Positions 9,753-42,112 of a stretch of DNA of 64,000 nucleotides are shown here, piece by piece (position 1 is the first letter of the stretch; every line of letters starts with the position of its first letter). The stretch lies in NCBI GenBank assembly GCA_000092065.1, contig CP000581.1; one strand, given 5' to 3'. The stretch is from Ostreococcus lucimarinus. Lineage: Eukaryota. The notes under the pieces were generated by a model. It did not search any database and had not been told where the DNA came from. It saw only the letters and a program-made list of their open reading frames with translations. The position numbers and the translations under genes are program-made.

Positions 9753-9998
9753 ATGGCGCACGAACAGAACCCCGAGGCGGTGATGCACCAAGTCAAAGCC
9801 GAGCTCGCGAACGCGTACGCGCAGGAGTTCTTCACGACGGTTCGGGACAAGTGCTTTCAAAAGTGCGTCACCAAACCGGGCGGGTCGATGTCGAGCGGCG
9901 AAGCGACGTGCCTGTCGAGGTGCACGGACAGGTACGTCGAGGCGACGAAGATGATTTCGCACGTCGTGTTGCAAGCGTACTCCAAGGGTGGGGTGTGA
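9753..9998 (+). CDS. TIM13: Mitochondrial import inner membrane translocase subunit Tim13 (small Tim, twin Cx3C)
   Basis: 81 aa with the twin CX3C motifs CFQKC...CLSRC. DKCFQKCVTKPG and ATCLSRCTDRYV match the Tim13 blocks. It is transcribed divergently from UTP7, 95 bp apart. Confidence 0.8.
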   Translation: MAHEQNPEAVMHQVKAELANAYAQEFFTTVRDKCFQKCVTKPGGSMSSGEATCLSRCTDRYVEATKMISHVVLQAYSKGGV

Positions 9999-10156: not shown

Positions 10157-13100
10157 TCACGCGTTGTCGGACTCGGACTCCGCGAGGATGGCGGATTTGT
10201 CTAATCGCGTCGAGCTGTCGTACGCGGGATTGATTTTCGGAAGCGACGAACCGCTGTTGCTCCAATCTTCCAAAAACCACGCACTGCCGCCGCGGACGGT
10301 CAGCTCGGAGGGTTCGACGGGAATTTTGGACATCGACGAGAGGTCATGGGAACTCAAGCCACGCGAGAGCATGGCGCGAACCATTTCGGCGTGCGCGCTG
10401 GATTGCACCAAGACACGCCCGTCGTCGACCGAGCTAAGTTCGTCGGCGTTCAATTTGACCGGTGAGGACGAATTGGATAGCTTCGTCGGACTATGTTTCG
10501 CGAGCGCATTGAAAACGTGCTTATGTCGCTCGTGCAGCGCATCTAAGCCGTTGAGAATGCTCAAATCTATCGACAGCGAGTCACCATCCAAGCCCGTGAG
10601 TCGCCTCGCGAGCTCGAGTTGCGTCAACGGCTCAAGCGCGTCGTTTTCTCGAGCGGCTTCCTCGAGCAAATCAGCTGAACACCACGCGAGTTCGACATCA
10701 CTACTGTCGTGATCACCGTCGAGCGATGTTCGCTTGACACCAGCGTTTTTCGCCCGTAGTTGTCGGTTGATGTACTGAAGAATACGATGCACCTCCATCG
10801 GCGTGGCGACGACGCTAAGCATGTCAGTGACGTGCTTTTGATACGCCATTCTTCTGCTTTGCTCGTCCAAATTATCGATTACGTTCAAGGGTTCGCCTTT
10901 GGCGATGCTACCTTTCTCCATCGCGAGGTCCAGTTCCCAGCTATTGCCTTTGTACACAGACACATCTTCCTCTTCATGATCGCGCTGTTCGACTTCCTGA
11001 GATGCCGTGCTCGCGCGAGTTAACTCGATGTGAAGGCTTAACGCGTCACTGAAACTCGTTGGAATCGCCAATCGTTTCGCTGGTCGCACTTTATTTGGGC
11101 TCGTAAACACGTTATTGTTCGTAAACGAGGCACCGAGCCAATCGTCCGCTGCCTTGAGAATACTACCGCAGCTCGGTCGACGGGTCGGATCCATGACGAG
11201 TGCCGCTTTGATGAGCTTGATGAAATGCTTTGGCACAGTATCAGGGAACGTTGGAGACAATCCTTGCTGAAGCGCACGCCACTGACCCTCAACAGCGGTG
11301 CCTGAAGGATAACCCTTGAGTAATACCATAAGAAGCACACCGACAGACCATACGTCGCACTTCTTCGTGTATGGCTTGCGCCGAAGCACTTCCGGCGCGC
11401 TAAAGAATTTCGTCCCAACGTGTCCTTTCATAGTTTCGTGCGCCAAGCAGAACGTCGCGCTGCCGAAGTCGATTATTTTCAAAGTCGGAATAGCGCCTGG
11501 TTTGGGTGACCACGGCTCTTTGAGCATGATATTGTCGGGCTTCAAGTCTCTGTGCGCGACGCCCAACGAGTGCATGAACGACACTGCCCCGAGTAGTTGG
11601 TTGGCGAATACGCACCAATCACCCTCATCAAAAAGACCGCGTTGCGCGATGGCCTGTATTAATGTTCCACCAGTGTAAATATCGGTCACGATATGAGTCA
11701 CTTCGCTCTTCAATAACGGACTGTCTTCGTACACCATTAACTTCAACGGAAAGTTTGGATGATGCCCACATAATACTTGCAATGCATCGCACTCGTCTTT
11801 GATGGCATTCTCGTCGACTTTCGTGCGCAAAATCGACTTGACAGCCAAGATATCGCCCGTCTTCCGATCGACTGCCCGTCTCACCGAGCCGTAAATACCG
11901 CGGCCGATGAGATCTCCCACTTCCAAGTCGTCGTACACCTTCTTTGACGCAAAGTTTCCGAAATTTCGTCCTTGGTGCACAGTCACGTCTGGACAATCCG
12001 CGTTGGCTTCCTCGATCTCCAACAACTGCTCCCTCGTGAGAGGCTCTCGCTTTTTCTCAGTTCGCGTGTACGAGTAAACTTCGCCGATCACGGGCTCGAT
12101 CACCCTGAGTCGTTCCTCCAACTCGCCGAGCGACGGAATGTCTACGCAGATGGCGGTGATGTCGTCGTGAATCCCGCGAACTTTCAGAACCTTTTCAACG
12201 ATGCCATCCGCGCACGTGTCGGACCCCATGTATTCCATGCACTCGCGCGCGATTTCGCCATCCTTCAAAGCGGAAAAAACCCCGTCCGAGGCGATTAACA
12301 GTCGACATCCCGCGGCTGGGATGCGCACGCGCGTGAACTCTGGTTCGCAGATGAGTGCCGCGCAGTCGAAGTCTCCAAAGGCTCTCGAAACGGCGTAGCC
12401 ACCAGGAAACACGCGCAACGGCCCCAACTCTTCGCCCGCGTTGCCTCGCAGGCGCGCCAGCCTGCACTCGGTCTGAATCAAACGCCTAGCCTCAAACGGA
12501 TCCACCGGGTTGTGATCGCGCGACAGCCGCACGTGCTTGTCTCGATCCTCCGCCGAGATCGCTCCAAACTCCGAGGGATGCGGCAGCATCAGCGCCGCCG
12601 AGTCCCCGACGTTCGCCGTCACCGCGTCGAACGCCAACGCATCATCCCCTCGCCCGCTCACCACGCGCTGTATCGCCACCACGTTCACCGTCGACCCCCC
12701 CTCGGGCGCGGGTCCGTGACAAAAGAAACATCCCGTCGCGTTGCTCATCCCGTACTCGCTCTCCGTCCGCAAAATCGCCCGTCGCATCGCTCGCTCGACC
12801 GTGTCCTCGCCGTCCTCGCCGTTTCCCTCCCGACCGCGCGCCTCCTCGCCCGATCGCGTCCTCGCCTCGAGCATCCGAAACTCGTGCTCCAAGTTTCGTC
12901 CCAAGTGTCGCTCCAGGTACGCCGTCGCCGTGTCGTCCTTGTGCCCGTCGAACACGCAGTACACCGCGCACACGCGCCCGACCGCGACGCGCGCGTCGGT
13001 ATCATCGCGCTCCGTCGCGCACCACGCGTCGACGAGATTCGGGAACACCAGGTAGCCGTCCTGCGCCTTTTTCACGACGCATCGCGCGCGCCAGGGCGCG

Positions 13101-13165
13101 AACGGCGATGGCGCGCACGACGGCGACGAATGCGGCGCCGACGACGGCGCGTCGCGCGCGCGCAT
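10157..13165 (-). CDS. PP2C phosphatase / Ser-Thr protein kinase fusion protein with long C-terminal extension
   Basis: ORF 10157..13978. The N-terminal 270 aa are R-rich low complexity and overlap the upstream gene, so the start was placed at the first ATG (13165) before the PP2C domain. The PP2C motifs are VFDGHKDDTATAYLERHL...IASDGVFSALKDGE. The kinase domain carries GRGIYGSVRRAVDRKTGDILAVKSI, HRDLKPDNIML, DFGSA and GTKFFSAPE. About 350 aa follow the kinase. Confidence 0.7.
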   Translation of the reverse strand: MRARDAPSSAPHSSPSCAPSPFAPWRARCVVKKAQDGYLVFPNLVDAWCATERDDTDARVAVGRVCAVYCVFDGHKDDTATAYLERHLGRNLEHEFRMLEARTRSGEEARGREGNGEDGEDTVERAMRRAILRTESEYGMSNATGCFFCHGPAPEGGSTVNVVAIQRVVSGRGDDALAFDAVTANVGDSAALMLPHPSEFGAISAEDRDKHVRLSRDHNPVDPFEARRLIQTECRLARLRGNAGEELGPLRVFPGGYAVSRAFGDFDCAALICEPEFTRVRIPAAGCRLLIASDGVFSALKDGEIARECMEYMGSDTCADGIVEKVLKVRGIHDDITAICVDIPSLGELEERLRVIEPVIGEVYSYTRTEKKREPLTREQLLEIEEANADCPDVTVHQGRNFGNFASKKVYDDLEVGDLIGRGIYGSVRRAVDRKTGDILAVKSILRTKVDENAIKDECDALQVLCGHHPNFPLKLMVYEDSPLLKSEVTHIVTDIYTGGTLIQAIAQRGLFDEGDWCVFANQLLGAVSFMHSLGVAHRDLKPDNIMLKEPWSPKPGAIPTLKIIDFGSATFCLAHETMKGHVGTKFFSAPEVLRRKPYTKKCDVWSVGVLLMVLLKGYPSGTAVEGQWRALQQGLSPTFPDTVPKHFIKLIKAALVMDPTRRPSCGSILKAADDWLGASFTNNNVFTSPNKVRPAKRLAIPTSFSDALSLHIELTRASTASQEVEQRDHEEEDVSVYKGNSWELDLAMEKGSIAKGEPLNVIDNLDEQSRRMAYQKHVTDMLSVVATPMEVHRILQYINRQLRAKNAGVKRTSLDGDHDSSDVELAWCSADLLEEAARENDALEPLTQLELARRLTGLDGDSLSIDLSILNGLDALHERHKHVFNALAKHSPTKLSNSSSPVKLNADELSSVDDGRVLVQSSAHAEMVRAMLSRGLSSHDLSSMSKIPVEPSELTVRGGSAWFLEDWSNSGSSLPKINPAYDSSTRLDKSAILAESESDNA

Positions 13166-13350: not shown

Positions 13351-14736
13351 CTAAGGATCGATTAAAAAGGAAGGGAGACCGGTCGCGACGTCCTCGCGAA
13401 GAGATTCGAGGAAAACGCGGTCGGTGAGGGCGAAGGCGTGGGCGAAGGGCCAGGTGGGGACGGAGACGACGGCGGCGAAGCCGCGCGCGACGGCGTCGAG
13501 GTCGCCGCGAGGCGAGTCGTCGGCGACGACGACGCCCTTGGTGACGCGGAACGCGGAGGAAAGCGGACGCGCGTCGGACGACGTCGATGATGATGGTGAT
13601 GGTTGCGACGACGCGCGCGCGGCGAGGAGCCTCTCGGTGGCGAGCTGTCGGACGAATCGAGCGTCGCGGTCCGTCGCTCGGACGTCCGAGGCGACGGTTT
13701 GCGACGGCAGCGTTCGACCGAAGCGGTCGGTGGGGACGGAATCCACGGGGACTTCGTCGTCGAACACGGCCTGGACGCGCTGCTGGCGCCAAAACACGCC
13801 GGGACGGGCGGCGCGGAACTTTGACTTCGGCGTCCATTTCGCCGGAACGCTCAAATCCAAGTAAATGTCCGCCTCCACGAACGCGTCTCTTAGCGCCGCG
13901 CGTCGCGACTGTGGAGTCGTGTGTTCGACGGCGGTGTCGTTGACGTGAACCGTGCCCGAGCCGCCGAGCGACCAACAATCTTTGGCGGCGAAATCATCGC
14001 CACCGTCATCTAAAACTTGCCTCGCCAGCTCGTCGTCCATCGGCAACTGCGCCGTGCCGAGGCTCGCCCACCGCCCGTTCGTCGGAAACGGAAAATGTGA
14101 GCGAGGATTGTTCGCGGGCGACTTCGTCGGCAGCACTCGCAGGACGACACTCACGAGTTGCTCGAGCGCGCACGCGCACGGCTCGAACGACGTCGTCTGC
14201 GTCGTCGTCGGGATCGTCGCGCACACGGTGGGCGTTCCCGAGACGGCGGCGCGATTGGCGCATCGTCGAGCGCGACTCCCGCGCCCATCCTCACCCAAGC
14301 ACACCTCGCGCCCGCCCACGACCAGGCAGAGGACGCATTCGTATCCTAGTTGCGCCAAAATACCGTCCGTCGCGTCCAGCGCGACGACGGCGGCGTCCTC
14401 GCCGGAGCCGCGAAGCGCGTACGCGTCGCCGTCGCCGCGCGCCAACCGCAGCTCGCGCCCATCGCGCGTCAACCCATCCACGTCGTCGTGCGACAGCGTA
14501 AAGACGCGCAAATTGTGCGCGGCGGCGACGTCCGCGAGCTTCAGCGCGCACGCAGCGAGATCGTCGTCGCGCGGGCCGAGCAAGAGCACGCAGGCCTGGG
14601 TGCGTGTCGGAACAGACGACGACGTCGACGCGCGCGACGAGGACGACGAACGGCGACACGAGGACGACGAGTGACGGCGATGGTGCGCGGCGAAGGAATG
14701 CGCGCGCGCGGCTGCGCGCGCGGCCGCGCGCGGCAT
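13351..14736 (-). CDS. Hypothetical protein (no recognisable domain)
   Basis: 461-aa ORF with a real ATG at 14736. It has a non-repetitive central region (CWSLGGSGTVHVNDTAVEHTTPQSRRAALRDAFVEADIYLDLSVPAKWTPKSKFRAARPGVFWRQQRVQ). I could not assign a family from the sequence. Confidence 0.35.
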   Translation of the reverse strand: MPRAAARAAARAHSFAAHHRRHSSSSCRRSSSSSRASTSSSVPTRTQACVLLLGPRDDDLAACALKLADVAAAHNLRVFTLSHDDVDGLTRDGRELRLARGDGDAYALRGSGEDAAVVALDATDGILAQLGYECVLCLVVGGREVCLGEDGRGSRARRCANRAAVSGTPTVCATIPTTTQTTSFEPCACALEQLVSVVLRVLPTKSPANNPRSHFPFPTNGRWASLGTAQLPMDDELARQVLDDGGDDFAAKDCWSLGGSGTVHVNDTAVEHTTPQSRRAALRDAFVEADIYLDLSVPAKWTPKSKFRAARPGVFWRQQRVQAVFDDEVPVDSVPTDRFGRTLPSQTVASDVRATDRDARFVRQLATERLLAARASSQPSPSSSTSSDARPLSSAFRVTKGVVVADDSPRGDLDAVARGFAAVVSVPTWPFAHAFALTDRVFLESLREDVATGLPSFLIDP

Positions 14737-26421: not shown

Positions 26422-28308
26422 TTAGTCCGCGAGCACCTTACTAGACCAGCTGAGAGCGAGATTACGCGCGATGTTTGGCCCGTCGCCGACCGCGTTTTGC
26501 ACCAGCTTTTGGATATTGACCTCTCGTTGAAGCGTCGCAACGAGACGTGCGAGCTCGTCCACTTGTAAGCGATCGTCTTCCGTCAACGCGAGGAGCAGTT
26601 GCTGACGAAGTTTAGCGTCCGTAAGAAGTAACCCCGCGCCATCCGTGGCGGTTTCCGTCAAATCGAGGTTCCCGCCGCCGTCTCGCGCGAGATCGATCAA
26701 GTTTTCAAGGCGGCGCCATTGAAACTTGTCTTGCTTGAACAACACTTGAATCAAGCGCTCGCGAAGCGAAACGTCTCGGTCTGTCAATAACCGCTTGGCG
26801 ACGTACGGATACGCGACTTCGAGAAACTTGAAGTCCGGCTTCAACGTCATGCAAATCCCTTCTTGCGTCAACAGCGAGCGGATGACGAGCGAAAACCGCT
26901 CTGGGATGCGAATTGGGTACTGGTACACGAGCTTGTTGAAACTCGACGTCACGGTGCGAAAGTTGAAATTGGCTAACGATGCCGTGCGAGCGTCTTGCCA
27001 AATGTCTTGAAGCGCCGGAACAATGGGCCGCACGTCCGTGCCTGGGGTCAAGAAACCGAGACGAATGAAATCACCCGCCATGCTTTCGTAGTCCTCGTTC
27101 ACCGCGTGCACGACGGCGTCGATGAGCACCTCCTTATTCGTTTGCGTCAGCTGCGCGACGTTCCCAAAATCTACGTACGCGATGCGCCCGTCGCGCATCG
27201 CGAAAATATTACCCGGATGCGGGTCGCCGTGGAATAATCCAAACTCCAACAACTGTCTCAGCCCGCTCACGACGCCCACCTTGATGAACTCCTCGACGTC
27301 GATGCCGGCGTCGACGATGCCTTGCGGATCTGTGCATCGAACGCCATCGATCCATTCCATGGTCAAAATCTTCGACCCGGAGTACTCTTTGTAGTACTTT
27401 GGGATCTTCACGATGGGATCGTCCTTGAAATTGTCGTAAAAATCGCTCAAGTTGCGCCCCTCTTGCACGTAATCGAGTTCCTCCAAGAGCTTCTCGCCAA
27501 ACTCGTCCACGATGAGCTGGGCGTTGCAACCCAACGCGCGCACGGAGTAGCCGTTGATGAACCACGCCAGCGTGCGAAACAATAACAAGTCTCTGTAAAT
27601 GATGGGCTCGATCCCCGGCCGTTGCACCTTGATGGCGACTTCCTCGCCGCTCTCGCGAAGCGTCGCTCGGTACACCTGCCCGAGCGACGCCGCCGCGATC
27701 GGATCGCTCGAAATCACCGAGAACACCTCATCGATCGGTCGTCCGAGCTCGCTTCGAATGATATCAAACGCGGTCGCGTTATCGAACGGCGGCACGTCGT
27801 CTTGAAGCTTGCACAACTCCTCCATGTAATCGCTTCGCACGATATCCGGCCGGTTCGCCAACACCTGCCCCGCCTTGACGAACGACGGCCCCAACTTCGC
27901 CAACTGCACCCTCAGCTGCTCGCTTCGACTCACCACGCGTTCGGTTTCGTTCAACTTATCGTACAGCAACCCACTCGCGAACGCCGTGGCGTTGAACACG
28001 ATCTCCCCGCACCGCGCCGCCGTCCGCGCCGCTTCCCCCGGCCCTCGCATCGCGCGCTCTCTCACCACCGCCGGCGAGTACTTGGGCGCGATCGCGCACG
28101 CCCCGTTCTGCCCGTACAGTTCCTCCACGTCCCTCGCGTCCGGCTGCGCCACCGTCCCCGCGCTCGCCGTCGCGCCGTCGCCTCGCCGCCGCCTCTGGAT
28201 AAGCGCGCGCCGTCCCGTCGCGCCGCCCGTCGTCGCGCGCGTCGTCCCACCGCCGCGCGTCGCGCCGCGCGTCGTCGTCGTCATCATCGCCGTCGCCATC
28301 GCGCGCGT
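26422..28308 (-). CDS. ABC1/ADCK (UbiB) atypical kinase, plastid ABC1K-like
   Basis: Conserved ABC1 domain LAKLGPSFVKAGQVLANRPDIV...AAASLGQVYRATL..EEVAIKVQRPG...HGDPHPGNIFAMRDGRIAYVDFG. The track ORF runs to 28971, but that 5' portion is R-rich and antisense to the next gene. The start was placed at ATG 28308 (MATAMMTTTTRG..., a T/R-rich transit-like peptide). Confidence 0.7.
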   Translation of the reverse strand, partial: TRAMATAMMTTTTRGATRGGGTTRATTGGATGRRALIQRRRRGDGATASAGTVAQPDARDVEELYGQNGACAIAPKYSPAVVRERAMRGPGEAARTAARCGEIVFNATAFASGLLYDKLNETERVVSRSEQLRVQLAKLGPSFVKAGQVLANRPDIVRSDYMEELCKLQDDVPPFDNATAFDIIRSELGRPIDEVFSVISSDPIAAASLGQVYRATLRESGEEVAIKVQRPGIEPIIYRDLLLFRTLAWFINGYSVRALGCNAQLIVDEFGEKLLEELDYVQEGRNLSDFYDNFKDDPIVKIPKYYKEYSGSKILTMEWIDGVRCTDPQGIVDAGIDVEEFIKVGVVSGLRQLLEFGLFHGDPHPGNIFAMRDGRIAYVDFGNVAQLTQTNKEVLIDAVVHAVNEDYESMAGDFIRLGFLTPGTDVRPIVPALQDIWQDARTASLANFNFRTVTSSFNKLVYQYPIRIPERFSLVIRSLLTQEGICMTLKPDFKFLEVAYPYVAKRLLTDRDVSLRERLIQVLFKQDKFQWRRLENLIDLARDGGGNLDLTETATDGAGLLLTDAKLRQQLLLALTEDDRLQVDELARLVATLQREVNIQKLVQNAVGDGPNIARNLALSWSSKVLAD

Positions 28309-28588
28309 CGCGTCGCGCTCCAACGCCCTCGCGCGCGTCGCGCGCGCCGTCGTGTGCGGACGCGCCGTGACGTCGACGCGCCCGCGCGCGCGCGGCGATT
28401 CGATTCGTCGCCGCCGACGCCGACGCGACGCGTTTTCGCGCGTTTTCGCGCGCGCGCCGAATCGCGAAAATTTCGTCGCGTCGCGTCGCGTCGCGCGCGC
28501 CGCGTTCGCGACGACGCCGCGCGCGCGATGCGTCGGCGCGAACGCGCGCGTCAGACGGCGACGCGGCGATTCGATTCGATTCGCGTCG

Positions 28589-29179
28589 ATGCGCGCGCTC
28601 GTCGCGGCGGCGCTCGTCGCGGCGCTCGTCGCGCTCGCGGCGGCGCGCGGCGTCGCGAGCGCCGCGCCGCCGGCGACGATCGCGGCGTCGCGGGACGCGA
28701 TGGATTCGCTGCCGCGCGACGACGACGACGCCGCGCGACGACGGTTGCGATGCAACGCGTGCGCGGCGGCGTGCGACGCGCTCGTGCGCGATCTCGCGCG
28801 GGAGCGCGCGCGGAGGGGCGGGACGCTGACGCGCGCGCTTGCGGACGCGACGATGGAGGCGACGTGCGCGCGCGCGGGGGAAGAGCTCGGGTTGACGATG
28901 CGCGACGGGCGGGTCACGGAGACGTTCGCGGAGGACGACGGGACGGCGCGAGCGAGAGGGCGATGGATCACGGTGTACGCGCGGGAGGCGTGCGCGAGGC
29001 TGATCGATGGAGAACACGACGATGCGTTGATGACGTTCGGGAAGCGGGACGACGGCGGGGCGCGAATGGAGGCGAGGGAGGCGCTGTGTCACGCGAGAAC
29101 GGGGACGTGCGAGAGCGCGTCGGCGGCGCGCGCCGCGAACGAGTTGGAGGCGCGGGATCGGCGGGATCGCGAGCTTTAG
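28589..29179 (+). CDS. CNPY: Canopy/MSAP (DUF3456, saposin-like) family secreted protein with ER-retrieval-like C-terminus
   Basis: Signal peptide MRALVAAALVAALVALAAARG. The Cys pattern matches human CNPY2: RCNACAAACDALVRDLARE to HCGACRALVDELEWE, ATMEATCARAG to LEEICDRM, YAREACARLIDGEHDD to FACESIVEEYEDE, and LCHARTGTCE to LCSKRTDLCD. The C-terminus is RDREL (compare HDEL). It lies inside longer antisense/alt-frame track ORFs. Confidence 0.55.
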   Translation: MRALVAAALVAALVALAAARGVASAAPPATIAASRDAMDSLPRDDDDAARRRLRCNACAAACDALVRDLARERARRGGTLTRALADATMEATCARAGEELGLTMRDGRVTETFAEDDGTARARGRWITVYAREACARLIDGEHDDALMTFGKRDDGGARMEAREALCHARTGTCESASAARAANELEARDRRDREL

Positions 29180-36468: not shown

Positions 36469-38394
36469 TCAGCTCGGTCCCATCGAGATTGGAACACCTT
36501 GCGAGGAAGCCTTGGAGCCAAGTTTTTCCTTCATGGTGTCCGTGGTCGAGCCCGGGGCGTCTTTGTAGTTGCCTAAAAACCTTGAGCGGAGTTCGCGGAA
36601 CATGGCGTCAGCCCTGTTGCCGCTCGTAGCGATGCCATCCTTCGTGCGCGAGACGCCGTCGAGCATGTCGTCGATGGACACCAATTGTCTACCGTCGCGT
36701 ACGCTCAATAATGCGGCTTCGTTGGCGACGTTGGCGAGCTCGGCGCCGGTGAAGCCTGGTGTGGCGCGAGAAATAACGTCGCACACAACGTCGACGTCTT
36801 CCTCGAGATCCAAACCGCGCAAGTGCACTGACAAGATTTGCGCTCTCCCTTGCTGCGTTGGCGGGCCGACAAACACGCGTCGCGTCAAACGACCGGGACG
36901 CAACAGCGCCGGATCGAGCGCGTCCGGTCGGTTCGTCGCAGCTAAAATCAAAATTCCACTGTCCTTGGCGAATCCGTCCATCTCTACCAGCAATTGATTG
37001 AGCGTTTGGTCGCGTTCTTCGTTCAGACCCGCGCCTCGCCGCGATCCGACGGCGTCGAGTTCGTCGATGAAAATAATCGCAGGTCTGGCCTTTCGCGCCT
37101 CGGCAAACAGCTCGCGAACGCGCGCCGCACCGCGGCCGACGAACAGTTCGACAAACTCGGACGCGGCGACGGGGAAAAACGCAACGCCGGATTCGCCCGC
37201 CACCGCGCGAGCGAGTAGCGTCTTACCCGTCCCCGGCGGTCCGACCAAAAGGCACCCCGTGGGAAGTCTGCCGCGAACGTTCTTGTACTTTTCGGCGTTC
37301 TTCATGATTTGCACCAATTCAAAAAGTTCGGCCTTTGCCTCTTGCACGCCCGCCACGTCGGCGAACGTCACCTTGTCGGCTTCGTCTGTGCGCGCAGCCT
37401 TTTTCCGCTTTTTATCGCCCGCACCGCTCTGTCTGTTGATGGCGTTCCGCATGATGATCATGAGCGGAATGATAGGCAACCACATCGCGAGCACGGTGAA
37501 CATACCGCGGGACGCCAATCTCGACACCGCCGCGGGAACCGCGCCGAATTCCACCCCCGCGGCTTCGAGCTTCTTCATCAGCTCTGCGTCGCCGACCAAT
37601 CGTTTCGTCTGCAGCGTTCTCGCACGCCCAACCGCCGCATTCGGCTTCAAATCGTACAACAATCGCGTCGACCCTTCCTCAAATCGCACCGTCGATATCT
37701 TCTTGCCCTTTAAATCCTTCAAAAACGAACTGTACATCGTCGTCGGCACCACCGGCGCCGCCGCCTTCTTCGCGTTGTGTCCCCTTATCGCCATCCCCGC
37801 CCCGACCGTCGCCGCCATCACCAACCCCAGCCTCCCCAGGCGCGTTCTCGCGCTCATCGCGATCGCTCGCGCCGGCGTCGCGATCACCAACCACACCAGC
37901 ACCGCGAACGCGCGTCGCGCCACCAGCCCGAGCAGCAGCGTTCGCGTCGCCACCCAGCGCCACGCCGAGAACGGTTTCCGCTCCACCGGCCCGAGATCAT
38001 CCGACGCCGCGCTCGCGCTCGCGCTCGCGTCATCCTCCCCACTCGCGCGTTCCGTCGCGCCGCCGTCGCCGCCATCGCGCGCCGCCGTCGCCGTCTTCGT
38101 CACCGCGTCCCGCTCGACGTCATTGCCTTCGCGCGCGTTATCCACCCCCTGCGGCGTCGACACCGCGCGCGCGCGGCTCTCGAGCCCCCGCGCGAGCGCG
38201 CCGTTCGCACCCGCATCGCTCGCGCGCGCTCGCGCGCCGAGCGCGGCGCTCGCGACGCCCCGGCGGTCCCGCGAACGCGTCGCGCGCGACGCCGACGTCG
38301 TCGTCGCGAATCCTCGCGCGCGGACGACGCCGCGCGGCGCGCTCGCGCGCGCGCGCGCGGCGCGCATCGCGGGCGACGGCATCGTCGTCGTCAT
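36469..38394 (-). CDS. FtsH-like AAA+ ATPase with FtsH N-terminal membrane topology but lacking the M41 peptidase domain
   Basis: A/R/T-rich presequence, two TM segments flanking an extracytoplasmic domain, then the AAA module GVQEAKAELFELVQIMKNAEKYKNVRGRLPTGCLLVGPPGTGKTLLARAVAGESGVAFF...IIFIDELDAVGSRRG...ATNRPDALDPALLRPGRLTRRV. The ORF stops about 90 aa after the AAA lid, where FtsH would begin its HEXXH protease domain. No downstream coding space remains before the CSE1 start. Confidence 0.7.
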   Translation of the reverse strand: MTTTMPSPAMRAARARASAPRGVVRARGFATTTSASRATRSRDRRGVASAALGARARASDAGANGALARGLESRARAVSTPQGVDNAREGNDVERDAVTKTATAARDGGDGGATERASGEDDASASASAASDDLGPVERKPFSAWRWVATRTLLLGLVARRAFAVLVWLVIATPARAIAMSARTRLGRLGLVMAATVGAGMAIRGHNAKKAAAPVVPTTMYSSFLKDLKGKKISTVRFEEGSTRLLYDLKPNAAVGRARTLQTKRLVGDAELMKKLEAAGVEFGAVPAAVSRLASRGMFTVLAMWLPIIPLMIIMRNAINRQSGAGDKKRKKAARTDEADKVTFADVAGVQEAKAELFELVQIMKNAEKYKNVRGRLPTGCLLVGPPGTGKTLLARAVAGESGVAFFPVAASEFVELFVGRGAARVRELFAEARKARPAIIFIDELDAVGSRRGAGLNEERDQTLNQLLVEMDGFAKDSGILILAATNRPDALDPALLRPGRLTRRVFVGPPTQQGRAQILSVHLRGLDLEEDVDVVCDVISRATPGFTGAELANVANEAALLSVRDGRQLVSIDDMLDGVSRTKDGIATSGNRADAMFRELRSRFLGNYKDAPGSTTDTMKEKLGSKASSQGVPISMGPS

Positions 38395-38617
38395 CGCGCG
38401 CGTCGACCGTCGCGTCGCGCGCGCGCGTCGAACACTGGCGCCGTCGGCGGGCGACTCGTCTCCTCAGTCAGCGACGCGCGGCGACGCGCGGCGACGACCT
38501 CGACGCGCGGCGCGCGCGAGCGGCGCGAGCGCCGTTCGAAGACGTCGGCGCGCGCGCGCCGCCGCGACGTCGCGGCGGCGCGGGACGCGCGCACCGCGCG
38601 AAGAGCCGCGCGACGTC

Positions 38618-41600
38618 ATGGCGGCGGCTTCGACGACGACGACGCGCGCGCGCGACGACGACGCGGGACGACGCGGGACGACGCGGGACGACGCGATGCG
38701 CCTCGACGCGATCCTCGAGAGCGTTCGAAGGGACATCGTCGGACACGGGGCGACGTTCGGCGGGGCGTACGGGACGAAGTCGCTGGTGTACGCCGACTAC
38801 ACGGCGAGCGGACGGGCGTCGCGAGCGGTGGAGCGGTGCGTCGCGCGAGACGTGCTGCCGATGTACGCGAACACGCACACGTCGACGTCGACGACGGGGT
38901 CGCAGACGTCGTGCTTTCGAGCGGAGGCGAGACAGGTGGTGGCGCAGTGCGTGAACGCGCGGGTGGGATACAGCGATAGACACGCCGACGTGGTGACGTT
39001 TACGGGAAGCGGGAGCACGAGCGCGATCGATCGGTTGGCGCGAGCGCTCGGGATGCACGTACCGTTACCGGTGAACGCGCCGAGGGAAGCGAGGCCGGTC
39101 GTGTTCGTCGGACCGCACGAACATCACAGTAATATTTTGCCCTGGCGCGAGTCGTGCGCGATTGTGGTGGAAATTCCAGAGGAAGAGAGCTCGGGAATGG
39201 TGGACGTGGACGCGTTGCGCGCGGCGCTGCGCGCGTACGCGTCACACGCGACGCTGATTGGAAGTTTTAGCGCGGCGAGTAACGTGACGGGGGTGAGGGC
39301 GGATGTGAATTTAATCACGGAGACGTTGCATCGAGGAAACGCGTTGGCGTTGTGGGACTACGCCGCCGCCGCGGCGTACGTCGACGTCGACATGAACCCG
39401 GTAGTTTTCGACGAAAACACCGGTGCGTTGAATCCGTACGTATACAAAGATGCGATATTTATGTCACCGCACAAGCTTCCGGGAGGGCCGGGTGCGCCCG
39501 GGATTTTAGTGGCAAAACGCGCATTGTTCGTGAACGAAGTGCCGAGCGAACCGGGCGGAGGAACTGTCTTTTATGTCACGAGCACCGATCACCGGTATTT
39601 AAGCAACAGAGTGGAGCGCGAAGAGGGTGGGACTCAAGACATCGTTGGAAGCATCCGCGCTGGCTTGGCGTTCCAAATGAAAGCTAACGTGGGGACGTCG
39701 TTGATTGAAGCGGCGGAGGAACGACTGCGACGACGATTGTTCGACGAGCTGGAGAAGGATGAGAATATTTGCTTACTCGGACCTCGGGCGAATTCGACGA
39801 CGAAGCGCTTGCCTATTGCGTCGTTTCTCATACGAGCCCCAGCGGTGGATTCGAAAAGTAGGTTTCTACACTACTCATTCACGTGCGCGGTGTTGAACGA
39901 CGTCTTCGGCGTGCAGGCGCGAGGCGGATGCGCGTGCGCAGGGCCGTACGCGCATCGTCTTCTCGGAATATCTCCAGCTGATGCAGCCGCGATCGAGGCG
40001 CACTTGCTAGACAAAGCCGAAGTATTACGACCTGGTTTTGCGCGCGTCAGTTTGCCATACTTCGCGTCTGATGCTGAGATTGAGTACACGTTGGCCGCGG
40101 TACGCGCCGTCGCCGCGCACGGCTGGCGCTTGCTGCCGATGTATCGCATGGACGCCAAGACGGGTGAATGGAGACACGCCCTTCGAGCACGAAGTTTCCC
40201 TGAACGCAAGTGGCTCGCACACATGCAGTTTCCTGTAGATTCGGAAGAAATACACGAATCACCGCCGAGTGAAGAGGAGATATCTCGCCGACTCGACGAA
40301 CAATTGAGCGTCGGGATGCGCATTCTGGAAACGTGCGGTCAGTATCGCGACGGTGAACAACAAGGCAAAGCGAAGAACGGTCAGTTACGCATGCCGAATT
40401 CAGGTGGTATGGCTGCGGATGAGCGCATGGTGCTCGCTGGAGGCCGCGGCGACGACGACTCGAGGCTCGCTTACGACGAGGGCGAAGAGGACGACGACGC
40501 TCCTGAGCCGACGACGAATATCGAGCGCGGCGACGCGCTTCGTTGGTTCATGTTTCCGTCCGAGGCGGCTGCCTTGCTTTCAATCGCGCTTCCAGAGCAC
40601 TCGCACAGCGGAATACTACCACTTAGTTACGTGCCTCCAACTGGGACGATCACCGGCGCATTGCGTCCGCCGAATATTTGCGGCGCTCGCGAATCGGCAC
40701 CAAACGCACACGGTCAAAGTTACCGAACCGAAAGCAGGAAACACCCACTGCGCGTGACGGAAGAGTCGGGAAGTATTCGATCGGGCTTGATTCATCAGCG
40801 AGCGGCACCGTTTTGTGTAGGTGATGCACCGAGCGCACCACAGCCTTCAGTCGCAGAGGCTGAATTTCGCGCCGAATCGACGCTCGAACCGCGCGTGCGA
40901 GAGCTCACACTCGACGTGTCACCACCGATGAAAGAAGTGACGGTGACGGAAGATAGCATGTCCGAAAAACGTGTTCCGATGACAAATGATCAAACGCTTG
41001 ATGGTGCCGTCAGAGAAAAAGAAGTGAAAAAGAAGAGACACAAGTTCGCCAAGCCGTCACCAAAGTTGTTGCGCATGGTGAACCAGGCGATACAAGACTT
41101 TGACATGATTCAACCCGGAGACCGTATTTTGCTTGGTCTTTCGGGAGGTAAAGATTCTCTCGCAATGTTACACATTCTGATGTGCATGATGTCGCGTTAT
41201 CCGCCCGGAACATTTACTCTCGCGTGCGCGACAGTAGATCCCGGCACCGAGGCGTTCAATCCTCGGCCTTTGATTCCTTATGTGGAATCTCTCGGCATCG
41301 AGTACCATTATCTCGAAGAAGAAATCATGGCGATGGCGGACGCGCACATGACTGGTGACAGTATTTGTGCGTTCTGCGCGCGTATGAAACGGGGCGCTCT
41401 ATACACGTGTTGTCGCAAGTATGGTTACAACAAGCTCGTTCTAGCACAACATTTAGATGACTGTGTGGAGAGTTTCCTGATGAGCACAATGTACAACGGA
41501 ACGATGCGAACGATGAAAGCGTCGTATCTCATCGACGAGGGTGATATCACTGTCATTCGTCCCGCCATTTACTTACGCGAGAAGGCTTTACGTGACTTTT

Positions 41601-42112
41601 CTTACGAAGCGGGATTGCCCGTCATCAACGAAAATTGTCCGGCGTGCTTCGAAGCGCCCAAGGAGAGACAGAACATCAAGAAACTTTTGTCTCGCGAAGA
41701 AAGTTCGTTCCCATCGCTGTATTCGTGCATGCGTAATGCGCTAATGCCACTTTTTGATCCTGCCGCTATGGATATACTATCTATGATTCGAGAAACAATC
41801 GATGGGAGAAACAAGTTTAAGGAGCGCGCCAAGGCGCAACGCGCCGAATCTCTCGCAAACGGGAAGTGCAATCCCAAACGCGGAGAAGTTTCAATCGCCA
41901 AGAATGGTGCGAACACCGAGCCTGGGACTGAGCTTAACATCAACGAACCGATAGAACTGTCCAGTGCGTCAGAGATGCAGCTACTGGCAGAGTTAAATAA
42001 AAGGCGTCGTGAACGCATTCGCCAAACCACGAAAACCAACGACAGTGAATTCGACGCCGATTTAACGGAGAAGCAAGTGTTTTGTACCGCAGAAGGATGC
42101 AAACGTGAGTAG
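38618..42112 (+). CDS. Fusion protein: class-V aminotransferase (cysteine desulfurase/selenocysteine lyase-like) domain + TtcA-type PP-loop tRNA 2-thiocytidine synthetase domain
   Basis: Track ORF 36998..42112. The first roughly 540 aa are antisense to FtsH; the real start is assumed at ATG 38618 (MAAASTTTT...). The N-terminal domain shows [15 protein letters not shown]...[16 protein letters not shown], a PLP-Lys motif [17 protein letters not shown] and GGCACAG. The C-terminal domain aligns to E. coli TtcA: [41 protein letters not shown] to [54 protein letters not shown] to CSLCSRLRRGILY, and [15 protein letters not shown] to LGHHRDDILQTLFLN. A 9-bp repeat (gacgcggga) x3 lies at 38655-38690. 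Confidence 0.7.
   Translation: [1164 protein letters not shown]

Follow-up and report, generated by a model that had tools for sequence, protein, structure and literature searches.

A PP2C phosphatase fused to a CDPK-like kinase and a family-specific helical tail in Ostreococcus lucimarinus, with a proposed self-contained phospho-switch

In a 64,000-nucleotide stretch of the genome of the picoalga Ostreococcus lucimarinus (contig CP000581.1 of assembly GCA_000092065.1; hereafter, the window), one gene on the minus strand (10157..13165) encodes a protein that almost certainly joins a PP2C phosphatase, a calcium-dependent protein kinase (CDPK)-like kinase, and a helical tail in a single chain. 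We regard a bifunctional enzyme of three parts, whose tail would act as a self-contained switch, as the best explanation of the whole, holding it with about even confidence, and the switch itself, in which the two activities would act on the protein's own tail, is put forward tentatively. The architecture is already catalogued and is not a discovery, while the family is functionally uncharacterized. Fusions of a kinase with a phosphatase are rare and informative, since a single polypeptide can control the level, timing, or resetting of its own phosphorylation state. Ostreococcus, a model alga amenable to genetics, has a very small kinome (133 kinases in O. tauri), to which this family belongs.

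The coding sequence requires no intron and runs from ATG to stop without a break (1002 codons plus the stop codon), and an identical 1002-aa product was called on independent assemblies, where its flanks are ordinary eukaryotic genes. Among 5.8 billion proteins searched, 18 full-length relatives were found, all with PP2C and Pkinase domains. These comprise a cluster of 1002-aa proteins (99% identical; 169 members), eight further Ostreococcus-type proteins (956-1013 aa, with 55-85% identity across 94-97% of the query), and nine Micromonas-type proteins, which are longer (1076-1274 aa). Complete transcript-derived open reading frames (ORFs) are available from a close relative (968 and 971 aa), from Micromonas pusilla (UniRef A0A7S0I7J6, 1170 aa), and from a distant family member (1472 aa). 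Because the complete transcript ORFs of these homologs span PP2C, kinase, and tail, the locus is one nuclear gene with one transcript and not two genes. The fusion of a PP2C to a complete kinase, which the first-pass annotation had proposed from the DNA letters, is thus borne out by the Pfam scan, by the uninterrupted ORF, and by the presence of every motif it had quoted.

It is extremely improbable that the fusion is an annotation artifact (two adjacent genes in one ORF) or a pseudoenzyme with one catalytically dead domain. The 1002 codons without a stop, the fused architecture kept in every full-length homolog, the transcript ORFs covering all parts, and the invariance of all catalytic residues argue against such an error, as does the newer annotation of the O. 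tauri ortholog as a "PP2C with kinase domain." In its favor, the same ortholog was entered merely as a "PP2C fragment" in older O. tauri tables, and the exact 1002-aa model turned up in Logan and ENA assemblies alone, with no named NCBI or UniRef entry for it among the 40 cluster members read. The neighboring genes, unlike this product, match O. lucimarinus RefSeq proteins; the reference gene model of the locus may therefore differ or be truncated, like the early O. tauri model.

The N-terminal domain (residues ~28-345; 12131..13084, minus strand, as for all parts of the gene given below) is predicted to be a Mn/Mg-dependent PPM/PP2C phosphatase with intact catalytic residues. The domain has the PP2C fold and matches the Pfam PP2C model (PF00481, residues 68-307, 59.2 bits versus a cut-off of 20.3), with homologs likewise above the threshold. 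The catalytic positions are D36 (KKAQDG), D73-G74-H75 (FDGH), D188 (GDS), D265 (FGD), D294-G295 (ASDG), and D334-D335 (HDDIT), among which D36, D73/G74, D294, and D334/D335 align with the DGH, DG, and DN/DD motifs of PPM1K and plant PP2Cs; motif 1 (KKAQDG) was assigned by its position and by the conservation of D36. In PPM1A, the metal-coordinating residues of motifs 1, 2, 8, and 11 are D38, D60/G61, D239, and D282. The metal-binding Asp residues, for which a check had been recommended, are present, and the metal-site residues are invariant across the 18 homologs. A profile search bearing on whether the PP2C belongs to clade L, the clade of the PP2C19 type, matched generic PP2Cs only outside the family (at most 96 bits; 120 matches listed), and the named plant proteins among them are mostly annotated as "PP2C 11."

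The Ser/Thr protein kinase domain (residues 411-677; 11135..11935) was matched by PF00069 at residues 415-671 with 165.2 bits. Its core is complete, from the Gly-rich loop (G421/G423/G426), the VAIK Lys (K443), and the alphaC Glu (E458) through H538-R539-D540, N545, D566-F-G568, and A590-P-E592 to D604 and R663, and is invariant across homologs. The best 60 PDB sequence matches are CDPK, CaMKI/II/IV, and SnRK2 structures plus one RSK chain, and the nearest relatives outside the family are mostly kinase and EF-hand proteins of 467-482 aa, i.e., CDPKs, at 33-41% identity. By sequence, the domain is assigned to the CAMK group as a CDPK-like kinase and not to the AGC group, in agreement with the earlier call of a CAMK-like kinase with complete motifs.

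Between the two catalytic domains lies a linker of about 65-70 residues (residues 346-410; 11936..12130). The absence of a cyclic nucleotide-binding (CNB) domain, which had been suspected from the sequence, holds for intact and degenerate forms alike. A CNB remnant was considered and ruled out by Pfam, as PF00027 (cNMP_binding) had no match in the whole protein at E<=1, the linker had no match of any kind even at E<=10, and no CNB was matched in the longer Micromonas-type linkers at E<=0.1. A CNB domain measures ~120 aa and is longer than the 65-residue linker. What the linker does contain is a signature motif, DVTVHQGR (residues 393-400; 11966..11989), in which D393, T395, and V396 are invariant in the 18 homologs, and a D[VI]T[VI] also sits between PP2C and kinase in every more distant member examined. 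The spacing of the motif from the PP2C end is far less variable than its spacing to the kinase start. AlphaFold confidence is low at residues 390-407. The Micromonas-type linkers (P0010-P0018) are low-complexity stretches of 100-200 residues with a conserved Cys-rich motif, GC[LF][AS][CF]L, which aligns with NFG[ND]F of the Ostreococcus-type proteins and might be a lipidation or metal site.

These features bear on the relation to plant proteins that combine the same activities. In Arabidopsis PP2C19 (At2g20050), two cNMP-binding domains separate the PP2C from the kinase, and for rice PKG both kinase and phosphatase activities have been reported (PMC11775391); the kinase of PP2C19 is of an AGC-like type and predicted to be inactive in Arabidopsis (PMC13017905). 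The O. lucimarinus protein shares with PP2C19 and rice PKG a PP2C at the N-terminus that is followed toward the C-terminus by a kinase and differs from them in its CAMK/CDPK-like kinase with all catalytic residues and its 325-residue family-specific tail; neither the two CNB domains nor the AGC-type kinase of the PP2C19 type was found in it. The first-pass annotation had likened it to plant PP2C-cNMP-kinase proteins, and the likeness stands for domain order, but kinship is not supported, because the kinases differ in group (AGC versus CAMK), CNB domains are absent, and the listed PP2C matches outside the family are generic. It is accordingly very unlikely that the protein is an At2g20050/plant PKG-type PP2C-cNMP-kinase that lost its CNB domains. 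The PP2C-then-kinase order common to both (PMC11775391) is what such a loss would explain, but the AGC-like kinase of PP2C19 (PMC13017905) contrasts with the CAMK/CDPK-like one here, none of the 120 listed PP2C-profile matches has a cNMP_binding domain, neither the 65-residue linker nor its Micromonas-type counterparts hold a trace of one at the thresholds above, and O. tauri tables keep the ortholog apart from cNMP-binding AGC kinases. Set apart from PP2C19 by the published descriptions, the PP2C-kinase fusion looks independent of PP2C19/PKG.

A second plant protein, VTC3 (At2g40860), also unites Ser/Thr kinase and PP2C domains within a single polypeptide and is conserved in land plants and algae (bioRxiv 10.1101/2025.04.03.647133). 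Compared by description, its kinase is N-terminal to the PP2C, the reverse of the O. lucimarinus order. The O. tauri tables contain two other "PP2C-K" genes, Ot12g00410 and Ot03g04580 (PMC4143559), either of which may be of the VTC3 type. The protein described here is a distinct, lineage-restricted variant among kinases fused to PP2C.

The part of the chain that is most particular to this lineage is the tail, which follows the kinase for 325 residues; it had been described as an uncharacterized extension of ~350 aa, and no known domain was found in it. It begins with a predicted disordered post-kinase segment (residues 678-757; 10895..11134), continues with a family-specific helical core (residues 758-890; 10496..10894) bearing the motifs YQKHVTDMLSV, LLEEAA...TQLELARRL, and LDALHERHKHVF, and ends in a mostly disordered C-terminal region (residues 891-1002; 10160..10495; predicted local distance difference test [pLDDT] <50). 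Within this last region are a helix, HAEMVRAML (residues 925-933), and an aromatic-acidic motif, SAWFLEDWS (residues 961-969; 10259-10285), with counterparts in Micromonas-type sequences, whose C-termini similarly read SWWEEETVEA or SWLDERTVDA. Conservation of the tail is high among Ostreococcus-type sequences, and it can be aligned to the Micromonas-type sequences via four helical motifs: [YF]xRxxxx[MLI]LSV, LExA...Q[LI]E[LI], LxxLHxRH, and M[VL]xAMLxR. A tail profile had 28 matches among 1.84 billion representatives, all behind a PP2C and kinase. The tail is thus a helical domain exclusive to one family of Ostreococcus- and Micromonas-type picoalgae. The full set of family elements, namely, a PP2C, a D[VI]TV linker motif, a CAMK-like kinase, and a tail with LSV, QLEL, and LH.RH, is common to the query, to the 17 aligned homologs (P0002-P0018), and to the more distant members.

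Two other tail sites were considered as regulatory elements. The post-kinase segment includes a pseudosubstrate-like motif, R694-P-A-K-R-L-A700-I-P702 (11060-11086), which is kept as R.A[RK].L[AS][ILV]P in nine Ostreococcus-type sequences, with Ser at the center in P0003, and is absent from the Micromonas-type sequences aligned. Docking of this motif, or of the DVTV motif, as a pseudosubstrate found no support either way in the full-length AlphaFold model, since both have a pLDDT of <50. The other is a basic-x-Ser-hydrophobic-Asp site, KRTSLD (S814; residues 812-815; 10721-10732), in a loop of the tail core that is disordered. It was set aside as a regulatory site: most of the Ostreococcus-type sequences and three of the Micromonas-type ones carry the pattern [KR][KR]xS[LIFM]D, and the others lack or replace it (Ala in P0014).

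As the nearest relatives of the kinase domain, CDPKs likewise carry a regulatory region after the kinase, which raises the question of whether the tail descends from theirs. The protein could be a degenerate CDPK, in which the PP2C replaced the short variable N-terminus that CDPKs carry and the tail is what remains of the junction and calmodulin-like activation domain after a loss of Ca2+ binding. We consider this descent unlikely and keep it as a low-probability rival. The kinase assignment would fit it, but the query has no EF-hand Pfam match, the EF-hand loop pattern occurs in 0 of 28 family members versus four matches in each control CDPK, and an hhalign comparison of the tail with a CDPK activation-domain alignment gave a nonsignificant E value of 0.36.

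Evidence that the tail is phosphorylated in vivo comes from Ostreococcus tauri, where the ortholog is Ot01g05370 (ostta01g05490; XP_003074601.1; UniProt Q01FP2). In the O. tauri kinome paper, Ot01g05370 is listed as "CAMK-like," is entered among the phosphatases as a "PP2C fragment," and is treated in the text as a PEPKR-type kinase (PMC4143559). The peptide GLSSYNLSATEK, phosphorylated at positions 3 and 8, was assigned to Ot01g05370 as "calcium-dependent protein kinase, putative" (PMC4143559 Additional file 1), and the same tail site appears in a diel phosphoproteome under ostta01g05490, annotated as "PP2C with kinase domain," where the doubly phosphorylated peptide peaks at zeitgeber time (ZT) 0 and has its trough at ZT16, with a 3.5-fold change and a p value of 4.9e-7 (PMC10540734 Table S2). 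Taken together, the two data sets put phosphate on residue 3, or alternatively 4, and on residue 8 of the peptide. Because GLSSYNLSATEK is an exact substring of the P0006 cluster only, and this cluster is 60% identical to the query across 95% of its length, Ot01g05370 is taken as the ortholog. An ABC1 atypical kinase gene (26422-28971, minus strand; PF03109, 237.6 bits), ~13 kb from the PP2C-kinase gene, fits the neighboring O. tauri gene Ot01g05460 (OSA1) and thereby supports chromosome-1 synteny. A "PP2C Pkinase" architecture had also been entered for O. tauri and two Micromonas strains in a Pfam 24-based table (PMC2939887). No functional study of the ortholog was found, as it appears in kinome tables and phosphoproteome supplements only, and beyond the kinome paper, no literature naming it by accession (Q01FP2, XP_003074601, or ostta01g05370) was found.

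Of the O. tauri phosphoserines (pS921 or pS922, plus pS926), the first falls in the context MMSRGLS*SYNL, which corresponds in O. lucimarinus to LSRGLS938SHDL. This gives a candidate regulatory phosphosite, L933-S-R935-G-L-S938-S-H-D-L942 (10340..10369; S938 at 10352-10354), and a second candidate in the tail, S943 (10337-10339). Ostreococcus-type sequences keep R935, G936, L937, S938, and L942 without exception, and R935 does not vary in any of the 18 homologs. The S938 site follows the pattern hydrophobic(-5)-x-R(-3)-x-x-S-x-x-x-hydrophobic(+4), and Phi-x-R-x-x-S-x-x-x-Phi, where Phi is a hydrophobic residue, is the consensus favored by CDPK/SnRK/CaMK-type kinases.

The mechanism that we tentatively propose would proceed as follows: (i) the protein's own kinase would phosphorylate its own tail at the conserved S938 site; (ii) the tethered PP2C would strip that phosphate; and (iii) the chain would thereby work as a self-contained, self-resetting phospho-switch or timer, in which the tail would take the regulatory place of the CDPK calmodulin-like domain without Ca2+ binding. 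The notion of a self-regulating module, already raised in the first-pass annotation, is plausible and gains indirect support from the phosphorylation of the ortholog's tail in vivo, and the dawn peak of the doubly phosphorylated O. tauri tail peptide suggests a link between the switch and the day-night cycle. Several observations weigh against an own-tail switch. S938 is not kept in all Micromonas-type sequences, in which R935 alone is invariant; a different kinase could phosphorylate the tail site; and AlphaFold models the linker, the post-kinase segment, and the surroundings of S938 with low confidence, so there is no structural support for docking of these segments in either active site.

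The same observations would fit a pair of activities working in trans, in which kinase and PP2C act on one or more common external substrates and not on their own chain. In such an arrangement, one polypeptide would set a robust, concentration-independent level of phosphorylation, the tail would serve for targeting or substrate recruitment only, and other kinases would phosphorylate it as an independent input. In favor of such a pair, the catalytic sites of both enzymes are intact, the tail is conserved yet without predicted contact to either domain, and for the known function of Arabidopsis PP2C19 on the external substrate NPH3, its PP2C domain is both required and enough by itself (PMC11775391). 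On the other hand, tethering kinetically favors an intramolecular reaction, and the phosphorylated tail site fits the consensus of the protein's own kinase class. Action in trans, taken singly, is somewhat unlikely, though compatible with the own-tail switch and about as likely as it.

Precedents for single-chain kinase/phosphatase arrangements are provided by rice PKG and by Mycobacterium tuberculosis Rv1364c, which has the order PAS-PP2C-kinase-STAS and whose C-terminal domain is a target of both activities, the kinase adding phosphate and the PP2C-like phosphatase removing it (PMC9138534). Rv1364c is the closest functional analogy to the proposed switch and, being bacterial, an analogy only. 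Its kinase domain and STAS tail are not known to be related to the Hanks-type kinase and helical tail of the O. lucimarinus protein. If the own-tail switch is real, it would lend itself, as a simple system, to work on how signaling dynamics are shaped by opposing activities within a single protein and would exemplify CDPK-like kinase regulation without calcium; if it is not, the protein would merely be another catalogued multidomain kinase. A bolder and rather improbable combination would make the protein a former CDPK without Ca2+ sensing but with a built-in PP2C, whose own kinase would write and whose own phosphatase would erase the S938 phosphate as a calcium-independent switch in the picoalgal pre-dawn "phospho-dawn" wave. 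If true, such a self-resetting former CDPK would parallel, in a eukaryote, the single-chain partner-switch modules exemplified by Rv1364c.

With respect to the locus itself, a bacterial-code ORF listing extends the frame upstream of the ATG to 13978. As this extension is rich in Arg and a 461-codon ORF of a different frame overlaps it, it is considered noncoding. The 461-codon ORF (13351-14736, minus strand) lies immediately upstream of the PP2C-kinase gene, was called as a gene on independent assemblies, and has no Pfam match at E<=10. Along the PP2C-kinase gene, the G+C content at third codon positions declines from 0.88 (codons 1-120) to ~0.55 (codons 600-840) and rises to 0.77 near the 3' end, with values of 0.68-0.85 in neighboring genes; the gradient could be a gene-end effect or could stem from differing constraint along the gene.

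Elsewhere in the window, a Tim13 ORF (9753-9998, plus strand) is identical to XP_001415643.1 of Ostreococcus lucimarinus CCE9901, and an adjacent WD40 ORF clusters with A4RRX4 of O. lucimarinus. A 1704-codon open frame (36998-42112, plus strand), whose start overlaps a 641-codon ORF on the opposite strand (36469-38394, minus strand), combines an Aminotransferase class-V (NifS-like) domain at residues 597-1029 with a PP-loop ATP_bind_3 domain at residues 1377-1542 and could be a fusion or two genes sharing a frame.

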